A DNA stretch of 64,000 nt. It comes from a virus (Duplodnaviria; Heunggongvirae; Uroviricota; Caudoviricetes). Made by a program: the position numbers and the translations under genes. The DNA lies in the IMG/VR virus record IMGVR_UViG_2639762884_000001. One strand, 5' to 3'. The notes beneath the pieces were generated by a model that was not told where the DNA came from, searched no databases, and saw only the letters and a list, made by a program, of their open reading frames with translations. This document shows, one piece after another, positions 61,087 to 64,000 of the stretch (its first letter is position 1; the number at the start of each line of letters is the position of its first letter).

Positions 61087-61161
61087 GATGGTGTAGCTCA
61101 GCGGTAGAGCAGTTGGCTGTTAACCAACTGGTCGGTGGTTCGAATCCACCCACCATCGCCA
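61087..61161 (+). tRNA. tRNA-Asn (anticodon GUU)
   Basis: Acceptor GATGGTG/CACCATC, D-arm TAGCTCAGCGGTAGAGCA, anticodon arm GTTGG-CTGTTAA-CCAAC, T-arm GGTGGTTCGAATCCACC; genomically encoded CCA. Confidence 0.85.
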
Positions 61162-61166
61162 ATTTA

Positions 61167-61253
61167 GGAGAGTTAGTCCGTAGAGGTAGCGGGGTAGACT
61201 GTAAATCTACTGTCATTGCGACTCGGGTGGTTCGACTCCATCACTCCCCACCA
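61167..61253 (+). tRNA. tRNA-Tyr-like (anticodon GUA), class II
   Basis: Anticodon arm GTAGA-CTGTAAA-TCTAC, T-loop TTCGACT, variable arm; acceptor stem has one mismatch; ends in CCA. Confidence 0.55.
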
Positions 61254-61257
61254 AATT

Positions 61258-61333
61258 GCCGGTTTAGCTCAGTTGGTAGAGCGCCTGCCTTGTAAGCAGG
61301 ATGTCAGCGGTTCGAGTCCGTTAACCGGCACCA
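61258..61333 (+). tRNA. tRNA-Thr (anticodon UGU)
   Basis: Acceptor GCCGGTT/AACCGGC, D-arm GCTCAGTTGGTAGAGC, anticodon arm CCTGC-CTTGTAA-GCAGG, T-loop TTCGAGT; CCA. Confidence 0.8.
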
Positions 61334-61557
61334 ATACAACGATAAGATCATTACGGTTAATCGTCGTTCATGTGCACAATGACTGGTCGAAAGGTAGTGA
61401 TCTTACCGTTGTGGTGGATTCGCAGACTGATGCGATAGCTTTCTTGGATGTTAGGGAAATGCGGCCGCAAATCTTCCCTTTCGCGAGCGGTGATCGTCCG
61501 TAGTCCTAATTGGCTGCACCGTATGCCGGAGATTCAGTACCGGCTATCACAACGGCC

Positions 61558-61644
61558 GGAGAGTAGGGAGCATGGTGCTCAAGCGGTCTTGAAAACCGTC
61601 CCATTGCGCAAGCGATGATGGTTCGATTCCATTACTCTCCGCCA
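61558..61644 (+). tRNA. tRNA-Ser-like (anticodon UGA), class II
   Basis: Acceptor GGAGAGT/ACTCTCC, anticodon arm GCGGT-CTTGAAA-ACCGT, long variable arm, T-loop TTCGATT; CCA; D-arm atypical. Confidence 0.55.
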
Positions 61645-61800
61645 GACACAGCGTTGAGCGGTTTGGCCTTTTAATCAACTCGATTAAGACTCCGCTAACA
61701 TAAACCAGACCGCTCAACGCTGTGATAGACAATTACGGCAGACGTTCTTAACCATAGCTTGCTAACATCCTAGCAACACTTTTTTTTCAGCGCAAAATTC

Positions 61801-61822
61801 AAAGGGGCTTCGGCCCCTTTTT
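61801..61822. terminator. bidirectional Rho-independent terminator (UUCG tetraloop)
   Basis: AAAGGGGC-TTCG-GCCCCTTTTT. Confidence 0.85.
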
Positions 61823-61829
61823 GGCTGGG

Positions 61830-63050
61830 TTAATTAAAACCGAATGAATTAAGTTCTGCTTTGAATTTATCGACCATTTTTTCAACTTCGTTTACAATTG
61901 CGTGAATCTCTTCGTCTTTTCTCGGATTAGAATTGAGGTCAAAATATGCCTTATATAAGGCATATTTTGACAAGCTTCCTTCAATATTTTCAGAGAAAAT
62001 ATTGGTACGACCATCAGTTAATAAGATATCAGCAGATCGGGAATTTAAATTATATTTATAGTAAATCTTTATTAGTCTGCTTATCTCTTTTTCATTCTTG
62101 ATTACCCTCTGTCTTTTACCAGCAATATTAAGACTCCAGCCTACATAACTAGTCAGATCGGAATTAAACTTACACACTTCCGCATCAGCTTTTTCCATAT
62201 TTAGATTAATATTATTTCTCATGTGTAGCGGTAATTCGTTGAATTTTTGCTGTAAATGCTGTTTGCAGGGATTGTTGTAAGACCACAGAATTGCGAACGT
62301 AGCTCTTTGCATCCGGGTATTCAGATCGATGTTAAAGTTCTCACGATCACGAATCATTTCATCTACATAAAACTCTACAGCTTTTCGGTATTCTTTGTTA
62401 AAGATCTCGGTAACATACATTTCTAAATAATGGACTTTCGAGATTGCCTCATCAAAAAAAAGCTCACTCTCAAAGAAGTTGTATTTATTTAAGAGATTAG
62501 AAAGTCTACTTAAGTCATAGGTTTTATTATTTTCAATATTAAGACCAAAAATGGCAATTAACAGACTTACTTTATGATTAATACTGCTACGTAATTGAGC
62601 TATATAAATTCTCTTTTCATCTTCTGCTGATGACAGTAGATAAAACTCTTTATCTAAATAATTTAAAATTAGAATTATGTGATTTACATATTTAATGTAA
62701 ATAGGTTGTTTTGTTACATAATAATAAATGCTTTTGATGGAATTAATGCTCAATTTCGTATTAAACTCTTTGTCATTCAACAAAGTGTTATTTACGTCCT
62801 CAAGTAATTTATCATGTTGCTCTAGTAATATTCCGTACCATTCTTTAAAAGAGGCTTTTTTCATTTCAAGAAGTGAATCTGCCGTTAATTGTGTTGCCTT
62901 CATTGCAGCTTTTGCACTATTTCTTGCCTCATAAGCAGCCCAAGCAGTAACAAAAGTAGCAAGTGAACCTATAGCCTCTTTGTATTCTTTAGCCACATCC
63001 CAAAAAATAATAGTTATTACACACAATATGAGAATTAATATTAAAGGCAT
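61830..63050 (-). CDS. AT-rich orphan protein with N-terminal transmembrane helix (406 aa)
   Basis: Low-G+C Lys/Asn/Ile/Tyr-rich ORF; N-terminus MPLILILILCVITIIFW; opposite in orientation to its neighbours and bracketed by terminators. Confidence 0.6.
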   Translation of the reverse strand: MPLILILILCVITIIFWDVAKEYKEAIGSLATFVTAWAAYEARNSAKAAMKATQLTADSLLEMKKASFKEWYGILLEQHDKLLEDVNNTLLNDKEFNTKLSINSIKSIYYYVTKQPIYIKYVNHIILILNYLDKEFYLLSSAEDEKRIYIAQLRSSINHKVSLLIAIFGLNIENNKTYDLSRLSNLLNKYNFFESELFFDEAISKVHYLEMYVTEIFNKEYRKAVEFYVDEMIRDRENFNIDLNTRMQRATFAILWSYNNPCKQHLQQKFNELPLHMRNNINLNMEKADAEVCKFNSDLTSYVGWSLNIAGKRQRVIKNEKEISRLIKIYYKYNLNSRSADILLTDGRTNIFSENIEGSLSKYALYKAYFDLNSNPRKDEEIHAIVNEVEKMVDKFKAELNSFGFN

Positions 63051-63256
63051 GTTATCTATATCGTTAGTTAATTTTGAACATAAATGATACTTAGTCCACC
63101 GCTAAATTTCATCAAATTTGATAATTTTCTTGACGATCATGTCTCAAAATTATTTATACTTGGCATATTTGAGATATATAATAATAGGTAATAACACACC
63201 TATCACATTTAAGCATCAACAAGATAAATTACGGACCCAGACCAGAAAGGAAACTA

Positions 63257-63505
63257 ATGAGAAATATACTTATCTACGGACGAGATAACTGCTCATACTG
63301 CAAACGTGCGGTCGAGCTGGCGAAGAAACTAAAGGGACATGGCTACGGTGATTATGAGTACATCGACATCACCACTGCCGGTATCGATAAGGAAAAACTT
63401 AGCGAAATTGTTGGTAAACCGGTAGAGACTATCCCCCAGGTGCTGATCGATGGCCAGCCGATTGGCGGATACACAGAACTGGCTGCATACGTCAGCACCC
63501 TCTGA
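63257..63505 (+). CDS. glutaredoxin (GrxA/NrdC-like)
   Basis: CSYC active site in GRDNCSYCKRAVELAKKL and GKPVETIPQVLIDGQPIGGYTELAAYV align with E. coli Grx1 as recalled; GGAAAC RBS. Confidence 0.85.
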   Translation: MRNILIYGRDNCSYCKRAVELAKKLKGHGYGDYEYIDITTAGIDKEKLSEIVGKPVETIPQVLIDGQPIGGYTELAAYVSTL

Positions 63506-63509
63506 TTTT

Positions 63510-63535
63510 AACGGCTCACAGGAGCCGTTTTTTAT
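63510..63535 (+). terminator. Rho-independent terminator
   Basis: AACGGCTC-ACAGG-GAGCCGTT followed by TTTTTT. Confidence 0.85.
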
Positions 63536-63717
63536 TCCCACCAAACTCACACCTGTTTCCATTAAAATTCAAAAAACAACGCCTGAATGATTCCATACCT
63601 ACTATGTATGGAATCATTGCTGAAAATGAGTTACTTTTACTCTTGATCCTATAAGAATCTATGCCTAATATACTGTTTACTTATACAGTGCATCGGCGTA
63701 ACTCGGTGATTGTCATA

Positions 63718-64000
63718 TGAAAAATAGCTTTGACAGAGCACGCGCTGCGGAGAACACCTCAAAAGAGGCGATAGAGTATCTCGAAAGAGCATCTCAAATG
63801 CAGGCCGTTATGATCTCCCAGGTCAGCAATGACATGAGATTCTCGGACGCATTCATGTTATTCACTCGCTTATCTCTGCTGATAACCAGACGTCGGCCAG
63901 AGATCGCTGTTCATTGTATTTTGATACATGTTTTGCCGCACATTGCCGATGTAAAAGTAAGTGACATTAATAGGTTCATGGTGAACCAACTGGTCAACCC
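63718..64000 (+). CDS. hypothetical protein, 5' part only (runs off window end)
   Basis: ATG at 63718 opens a frame with no stop through 64000; not in the track because it is incomplete. Confidence 0.35.

Follow-up and report, generated by a model that had tools for sequence, protein, structure and literature searches.

What is encoded by the solitary, AT-rich gene that runs against its neighbours near the end of the 64,000-nucleotide stretch analysed here (the window; IMG/VR record IMGVR_UViG_2639762884_000001, Caudoviricetes)? The open reading frame occupies positions 61830..63050 on the minus strand, begins with ATG and specifies 406 amino acids identical to NCBI WP_049592666.1, which is annotated 'hypothetical protein'. 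An initial annotation of the window had described the gene as an orphan with an N-terminal transmembrane helix and no placeable motif, and had proposed a laterally acquired moron that might serve in defence or abortive infection (Abi). On sequence evidence the gene is probably a previously unrecognised distant relative of lactococcal AbiC and AbiP, and we put a probability of roughly 0.6 on its being a single-protein, membrane-anchored abortive-infection defence of the AbiC/AbiP type that the resident phage-plasmid would express.

With E-values of up to 10 admitted, an hmmscan of the window protein against Pfam brought up DUF4381 (0.11) and Vpu alone, and the 22-bit gathering threshold of PF16872 was missed; against the PADLOC models there were zero matches. 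In a PHROGs scan, the same protein matched phrog_18168, a family of unknown function, at E 1.3e-130. Among 5.8 billion clustered proteins, 75 clusters of relatives were found, all from Enterobacterales and all named 'hypothetical', with most of their members on contigs of 105-115 kb. Given these clusters and the PHROG match, the gene is not an orphan. A tblastn search of 50,697 phage records gave no match; just seven records in that collection are of the SSU5 type and none of them matched.

We compared the family by means of three profiles, where A1 represents the window clade, A2 the window protein together with distant relatives, and A3 the putAbiC-positive distant clade only. An exhaustive HMMER search of 1.84 billion representatives with the A1 profile yielded only 86 proteins at E <= 0.001, the distant ones being 427-499 residues long. 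Pfam PF16872 (putAbiC, 'putative phage abortive infection protein') was matched by 42 of 49 sampled distant members, and 7 of 10 that were scanned singly scored 31.9-45.1 bits, above the 22-bit threshold, at about residues 130-220. The PADLOC AbiC model matched 8 of the 49 (best E 1.3e-6) and the AbiP model 5 of the 49, in both cases in the putAbiC stretch. No other PADLOC model was recurrent among the relatives, and an NCBIfam scan likewise gave nothing recurrent. A link to PD-T4-4_B was rejected because it consisted of one weak match in a single relative of the 49 (E 3.6e-4). NCBI names members of the A3 clade 'putative phage abortive infection protein'.

Alignment of A1 to A3 by hhalign gave a probability of 100% and an E-value of 8e-42 over 405 columns. 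Moreover, a hidden Markov model made from A3 only, hence with no sequence of the window clade in it, scored the window protein at 125.3 bits over residues 4-394. By these profile comparisons the homology between the window clade and the putAbiC-positive clade is unambiguous and extends over the full length, and a putAbiC core is found by profile methods in a protein that had been reported to hold no placeable motif. The A2 profile also matched the p275A AbiC-like protein from Lactococcus at a probability of 92.9% and an E-value of 3.8e-7 over 59 columns (window residues 117-174). This 338-residue protein, with N-terminal transmembrane helices at residues 4-22 and 49-67, is counted as similar to AbiC in a pan-plasmidome paper. 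No significant match linked the window protein directly to AbiP.

AbiC (Prf; L. lactis plasmid pTN20) and the lactococcal AbiC-like proteins resemble the window protein in being encoded by a single AT-rich gene on a mobile element, in the predicted order of N-terminal transmembrane helices followed by a helical cytoplasmic domain, and in having no relative of solved fold. They also seem to share the core motif of about 60-80 residues, Y..(I/L)...L.. / Y...LR..(I/L) / hydrophobic helix (PF16872; PADLOC PDLC02343). However, this core alone aligns with the AbiC-like protein, at 24% identity over 59 columns, and it lies about 75 residues past the membrane helices in the window protein but about 120 residues past them in the lactococcal AbiC-like proteins. 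The latter are also shorter (338-344 versus 406 residues) and lack the variable C-terminal domain of about 200 residues, and the host of the window gene is a Gram-negative phage-plasmid, unlike that of lactococcal AbiC. AbiP (L. lactis; PADLOC PDLC02351) is likewise a membrane-anchored, single-protein Abi system; it has one clear transmembrane helix, as does the window copy, and the PADLOC AbiP model matches the core region of the window protein's relatives. It differs in its size of about 220-250 residues and in its reported binding of RNA and single-stranded DNA, whereas the soluble part of the window protein is near neutral.

The proteins of the A3 clade (in Pectobacterium, Yersinia, Serratia, Pantoea and Klebsiella, among others; 427-499 residues) are full-length homologues of like architecture that keep the motifs LLEQH, Y121, Y149, R154 and FF at only 17-22% identity to the window protein. 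This clade passes the Pfam putAbiC threshold, which the window clade does not, and it retains an invariant N181 and H209 (P0096 numbering) that are absent from the window clade. Unlike the window gene, its members are mostly chromosomal or on other plasmids. By description, PdpSau of S. aureus prophages is a further likeness, as a prophage-encoded, N-terminally membrane-anchored single protein with a predicted AbiP-like structure that aborts infection by lytic phages (PMC10127798); its host belongs to another phylum, and a positively charged C-terminal domain with an OB-like region has been reported for it.

The protein itself is divided into a membrane anchor, a conserved core and a variable C-terminal half. 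The N-terminal transmembrane helix that had been read from the letters is borne out by calculation, with a Kyte-Doolittle 19-residue mean of 2.69 for residues 1-19 (codons 2-19, PLILILILCVITIIFWDV; 62994..63047, minus strand), and it is conserved in those family members whose reading frame begins there. Upstream of the invariant Met50, considered as an internal start, we read no Shine-Dalgarno sequence at a suitable distance. A second hydrophobic or amphipathic helix at codons 26-40 (AIGSLATFVTAWAAY; 62931..62975, minus strand) corresponds to the family's second transmembrane helix. Its hydropathy is below 1.5 here versus 1.5-2.0 in relatives because this copy is without 4 residues present in most of them (the SLAF deletion in the alignment). 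Since the same deletion is common to a 144-member Salmonella cluster, we regard it as a tolerated variant. The large domain that follows is predicted to be cytoplasmic because positive charges come after the hydrophobic helices.

The conserved core, codons 45-203 (62442..62918, minus strand), was delimited from conservation profiles and is modelled by AlphaFold2 at a predicted local distance difference test score (pLDDT) mostly above 90. It includes the stretch equivalent to putAbiC (codons 117-200; 62451..62702, minus strand), to which the Pfam and PADLOC matches of the relatives align. Column entropy within the window clade is about 0.5-1.1 at residues 30-87 and 117-203 and rises to about 2.0 at residues 204-406, where identity to distant relatives is about 10%. 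This mostly helical C-terminal domain (codons 204-406; 61833..62441, minus strand) is our proposed specificity or sensor part. Across the superfamily Y121 and F192 are invariant, and F68, L75, L76, Q78, H79, L129, Y149, R154, I157, L187 and F193 are near-invariant. The AlphaFold2 model is confident as a whole (pLDDT 82.7) and predicts an all-alpha soluble part of about 360 residues behind the anchor. No solved structure resembles this predicted fold, and searches of PDB sequences with the A1 and A3 profiles gave chance matches only. An RNase of the HEPN type found in AbiD/F, AbiJ/Abi_C and AbiV was considered for the sequence R154-SSIN-H159 of the window copy. We rejected it since H159 varies, being Tyr in the 96% allele and Ser, Pro, Thr, Gln, Asp and others in other members, and since no Pfam HEPN match was obtained. 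R154 is kept in at least 90% of the family and is replaced in a few A1 members (Ser, His, Gln, Ile or Asn).

The genetic setting of the gene is that of exchangeable cargo. The window belongs to an SSU5-supergroup phage-plasmid of E. coli. Its ligase shares 99.8% identity with the enzyme of Escherichia phage Cyrano and 91.4% with the enzyme of Salmonella phage SSU5, and circular E. coli plasmids of 108 kb from chickens match the region at 99.9% identity. The G+C content of the reading frame had been estimated by eye at about one-third, below that of its flanks. The computed value is 0.311, as compared with 0.462 over the whole window and with 0.455 and 0.438 in the left and right flanks. No other 1221-bp stretch in the window has a lower G+C content than the reading frame (mean 0.462, sd 0.037; 0.3% as low). 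Codon use deviates as well. G+C at third codon positions is 0.285, and Asn is encoded by AAT and AAC in a ratio of 30/8, versus 5/14 in the neighbouring ligase gene. The protein is correspondingly composed of 11.3% Leu, 9.4% Ile, 9.4% Asn, 8.9% Lys and 6.2% Tyr. We considered whether the adjacent Asn, Tyr, Thr and Ser tRNA genes serve this codon use and rejected the idea, in that AAT and TAT are favoured but ACA and TCA are not enriched. The gene is opposite to its neighbours, as had been stated: the four tRNA genes (61087-61644), the ATP-dependent DNA ligase gene and grxA are all on the plus strand.

Comparison by blastn with three loci (L014, L003 and L001) defined the borders of a replaceable cassette of 1.45 kb at 61823..63270, which reaches from the terminator of the tRNA cluster to the opening codons of grxA. 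Where E. coli relatives have different cargo, homology stops at 61822-61831 and restarts at 63270, 14 nucleotides into grxA. Phage SSU5 and most E. coli relatives lack the abiC-like gene. The slot of most E. coli relatives is filled by two plus-strand genes for proteins of 184 and 262 residues; in E. coli pECAZ162_2, for example, the pair lies at L003:3750-5124 and is followed by a phoH fragment. The 262-residue protein is annotated hypothetical and has no Pfam match, and its N-terminal 130 residues match PADLOC PDC-M68A (E 5.7e-25), CBASS endonuclease effectors and Shedu SduA. The two-gene module is thus a candidate for another defence system, judged by these profile matches. Phage Cyrano carries a Gp49-family gene in the slot.

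Elements of Enterobacter, Salmonella and Klebsiella hold alleles that are 65-69% or 37% identical, in the same slot and the same orientation, and near-identical backbones carry alleles down to 32% identity. The slot of E. coli pLAU-OXA1, for instance, holds a 34%-identical allele (WP_113519372.1), though its ligase and GrxA are 99.5% and 96% identical to those of the window. Members of the family were found on 141 PLSDB plasmids, one at 95-99% identity, 55 at 60-80% and 85 below 60%. In the literature searched we did not find the slot between the tRNA cluster and grxA described as a hotspot. Prophage morons often encode divergent Abi proteins. The earlier assignment of the gene to this class is strengthened by the replaceable cassette with its sharp homology breaks, by the gene's absence from SSU5 and most E. 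coli relatives, and by its kin in moron slots of P2-like and lambdoid prophages.

Outside phage-plasmids, one homologue lies between gpV and gpS of a P2-like prophage. P2-like phages have three classical moron regions, and this position, orf30, is among them (PMC6823313, PMC3091744). Another is in a lambdoid prophage, between the replication genes and a nin-like region, and others are in small chromosomal islets. The P2 hotspots orf30, Z/fun and tin/old resemble the slot described here in carrying opposite-strand, AT-rich, replaceable cargo between conserved genes, and one homologue sits exactly in the V-S (orf30) slot, whereas the slot between the tRNA cluster and grxA is of the SSU5 type. 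All alleles that we examined are AT-rich, with 31-37% G+C in surroundings of 43-54%, and the gene runs opposite to its neighbours in phage-plasmid and prophage contexts alike. In the SSU5-type, P2-like, lambdoid and chromosomal contexts it is solitary, with its own intergenic regions, and no conserved partner gene was seen in any of them. One putAbiC-positive distant homologue adjoins an AAA_15/21+HNH pair (Septu-like) and genes for DndB and DUF4145. Large AAA_15/AAA_21 ATPases (OLD/Gabija/Septu-type) were also observed near homologues in the P2-like prophage (L008:20612-21245), where the ATPase gene adjoins the portal gene, the tin/old hotspot position, and in Pectobacterium (L011:1671-3521). 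The neighbourhoods of homologues that contain such ATPases are rich in defence genes.

Selection on the gene was estimated by the Nei-Gojobori ratio of nonsynonymous to synonymous substitution rates (dN/dS). For diverged pairs the ratio is 0.15-0.28, which indicates purifying selection on a functional coding sequence, and it is 5-20 times that of the ligase (0.01-0.06). For the closest pair (95.6% amino acid identity) it is 0.81, a value that derives from small numbers (18 amino acid changes and 26 nucleotide differences), while the ligase of the same pair gives 0.06. The closest-pair value fits relaxed or diversifying selection, which is often seen in immunity genes.

Taken together, the full-length remote homology to proteins that are positive for putAbiC, AbiC and AbiP, the nuclease-like module as an alternative occupant of the slot, and the Septu-like and DndB genes beside a distant homologue favour the earlier suggestion of a defence or Abi function. 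From this material we infer an anti-phage phenotype, as well as expression in the lysogen, the topology and the trigger. In the mechanism that we propose, the resident phage-plasmid would express the gene from its own AT-rich promoter, and the N-terminal helix or helix pair would anchor the product in the inner membrane, its all-helical domain facing the cytoplasm. The conserved core, including the putAbiC motif, would act as the effector or signalling part, and recognition of a product of an unrelated infecting phage would fall to the variable C-terminal half. Recognition would then halt phage development at the gene-expression or a late stage, at a cost to the infected cell and to the benefit of the lysogen population.

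This proposal draws on what has been reported for the lactococcal systems. AbiC, with two transmembrane helices, and AbiP, with one, are grouped in a 2026 review, in which a fold-based function was found for neither and both are placed among proteins that act after DNA entry (PMC13064643). AbiC reduces production of the major capsid protein, and AbiP requires its membrane anchor, binds RNA and blocks the early-to-late switch (PMC13064643); the proposed effect on phage development follows from these two activities. The phage-product trigger is proposed by analogy with AbiP, whose toxicity is triggered by a phage major tail protein, which is also where escape mutants map (PMC12184496). A further precedent is the AbiP-like PdpSau, which in S. 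aureus aborts infection by Kayvirus (PMC10127798).

Several observations weigh against an AbiC/AbiP-type defence. The window protein is below every Pfam and PADLOC threshold, and the A1 profile alone aligns with the p275A protein in the same register but at an E-value of 0.1, which is not significant. Similarity to the experimentally linked lactococcal lineage is confined to about 60-80 core residues. The family alignments reveal no evident conserved catalytic motif, and residues 45-406 have a net charge near 0 and an isoelectric point of 7.6. The soluble part is therefore not basic, which neither speaks for binding of nucleic acids nor excludes it. The window copy has a shortened second transmembrane helix, the Shine-Dalgarno sequence of the gene is weak, and the promoter-like matches in the divergent intergenic region number 11 versus a shuffle expectation of 7.5 (sd 2.6), which is not clearly above chance. 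A lactococcal AbiC-like protein with 38% identity to AbiC failed to protect against the phages with which it was challenged (PMC11381338), so a protein of this family need not be active. In the literature searched we found no published test of an enterobacterial family member and nothing on putAbiC/PF16872.

These points leave room for other functions, and the least improbable of them, although still unlikely, is an accessory gene outside phage defence, be it for a membrane protein that modulates lysis or induction of the element itself, for a factor in host fitness or stress, or for selfish maintenance in the manner of a toxin. That PHROG 18168 and all database names read 'unknown' or 'hypothetical' is in keeping with such a role, as is the non-defence cargo of the same island, such as grxA, phoH, a YafO toxin and a colicin-immunity-like gene. 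However, the absence of the gene from SSU5 and many relatives means that it is not needed for the life cycle; it lies outside the lysis cassette in all three phage types, it has no conserved adjacent partner or antitoxin gene, and its homology points to Abi proteins. Somewhat less probable again is an inner-membrane protein for superinfection exclusion or entry blocking, which would stop DNA injection or establishment of rivals, either other phages or competing SSU5-type phage-plasmids, without killing the cell, with the C-terminal half setting the target. The membrane anchor and the carriage by temperate elements in moron slots would suit this role, and highly polymorphic alleles at one slot in near-identical backbones are what competition between related elements is expected to produce. 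Yet most of the protein is predicted to lie in the cytoplasm, the relatives that can be detected are all of the AbiC/AbiP type that acts after DNA entry, with no other PADLOC model recurrent, and known injection-blocking exclusion proteins are usually much smaller.

A decaying or silent remnant of horizontal acquisition, with no current function, seems to us very improbable. The extreme AT-richness is typical of silenced foreign DNA, and the weak ribosome-binding site, the shortened second helix and the dN/dS of 0.81 against the closest allele could all be signs of decay. Against this, the frame is intact across the 75 clusters in several genera, dN/dS is 0.15-0.28 over longer distances, the 4-residue deletion is common to the 144-member Salmonella cluster, and the AlphaFold2 model reaches its pLDDT of 82.7.

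If the gene is an active Abi system of the AbiC/AbiP type, these elements would protect their hosts from other phages by means of a gene that is invisible to current annotation, which would bear on phage therapy and on the persistence of such elements. Phage-plasmids of the SSU5/pHCM2 type occur commonly in clinical E. coli, Shigella, Salmonella and Klebsiella, and AbiC is not mentioned in the consulted passages of a recent DefenseFinder-based survey of this group. If active, the gene would moreover give the AbiC/AbiP group, unsolved in its mechanism since 1992, a genetically tractable model in Gram-negative bacteria. The natural series of alleles, with a conserved core and a variable C-terminal half, is suited to the mapping of specificity.

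More speculatively, and with considerable doubt, the family could be a polymorphic single-protein immune receptor of temperate elements in Enterobacterales, in which a constant, membrane-anchored effector core of the AbiC/AbiP type is joined to a fast-diversifying C-terminal sensor. Recombination would swap whole alleles (30-100% identical) at a single fixed slot of SSU5-type phage-plasmids that are otherwise nearly identical, each allele recognising a different phage structural protein. Such a locus would amount to a cassette-exchange 'pan-immune' locus unseen by current defence finders, and a 34-bp palindrome in its variable half might in that case serve the exchange as an element of recombination or regulation.

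This palindrome (GTCAAAATATGCCTTAT|ATAAGGCATATTTTGAC) is perfect and lies within the coding sequence at 61938..61971, where it encodes residues 360-372 (LSKYALYKAYFDL). Its arm of 17 compares with a longest arm of 12 in 2000 codon shuffles, and its sequence is unique in the window. The surrounding minus-strand mRNA, taken over 61900-62010, has a folding energy of -32.2 kcal/mol (z -5.5). In the 96% allele a mismatch (Y366N) falls exactly on the centre, and the palindrome is absent from the other alleles, except for one of 14 bp at the homologous place in Pectobacterium.

The initial annotation had placed the gene between strong terminators and a promoter-like AT-rich region, and both descriptions held in part. 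On the left border of the variable cassette, a G+C-rich hairpin (GGGGC-TTCG-GCCCC) lies between A and T runs at 61801..61822. A simple pattern scanner missed it, and it became apparent by folding on both strands, with energies of -20.7 and -19.2 kcal/mol (over 61781-61835). Because the hairpin folds on both strands, we take it as one bidirectional terminator-like element, which by these folding models likely serves both the tRNA cluster (plus strand) and the abiC-like gene (minus strand). The terminator is thus real, but it is a single hairpin and not several. To the right, the divergent intergenic region 63051..63256, which is part of the cassette, comprises 206 bp of 28.6% G+C with promoter-like hexamers for the gene (minus strand; 63206->63178 and 63112->63084) and for grxA (plus strand; 63153-63182). 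Its AT-richness and the hexamers on both strands agree with the earlier description, although, as given above, the number of matches is not clearly above that in shuffles. We also observed that the best promoter-like site for grxA (TTTATA-18-TATAAT, 10/12) overlaps the best one for the abiC-like gene (GTGATA-17-TATTAT) back to back at 63153-63206. Since both overlapping sites are inside the swappable cassette, exchange of the cargo would also exchange the grxA promoter.

Beyond the cassette, phage SSU5 (L018) passes from tRNA-Asn directly to a cobT-like gene and is without tRNA-Tyr, tRNA-Thr and tRNA-Ser, the abiC-like slot, grxA, the integrase and the helix-turn-helix repressor (window positions of about 61160-64000 and beyond). 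Because SSU5 is without the whole stretch, the segment from tRNA-Asn to cobT is an accessory island of the supergroup. tRNA-Tyr is also absent from Cyrano and pLAU-OXA1. In the islands of Enterobacter (L006:7283-7699) and Klebsiella (L015:1569-2403), a YafO-family toxin module and a colicin E1-type immunity-like gene are found between grxA and the integrase gene.

Two further repeats were seen in the flanks. Directly after tRNA-Ser, in the conserved left flank of the cassette, an inverted repeat at 61647-61666 and 61705-61724 has 20-nucleotide arms that are 95% complementary and 38 nucleotides apart; it may serve in processing, termination or recombination. The grxA terminator (63510-63529) is separated from the integrase gene by a near-perfect palindrome at 63586-63618, with 16-nucleotide arms and 1 nucleotide between them. 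This palindrome is kept at about 91% in all relatives examined, including the Enterobacter, Salmonella and Klebsiella elements, and is a candidate site at which the adjacent tyrosine recombinase would bind or recombine.

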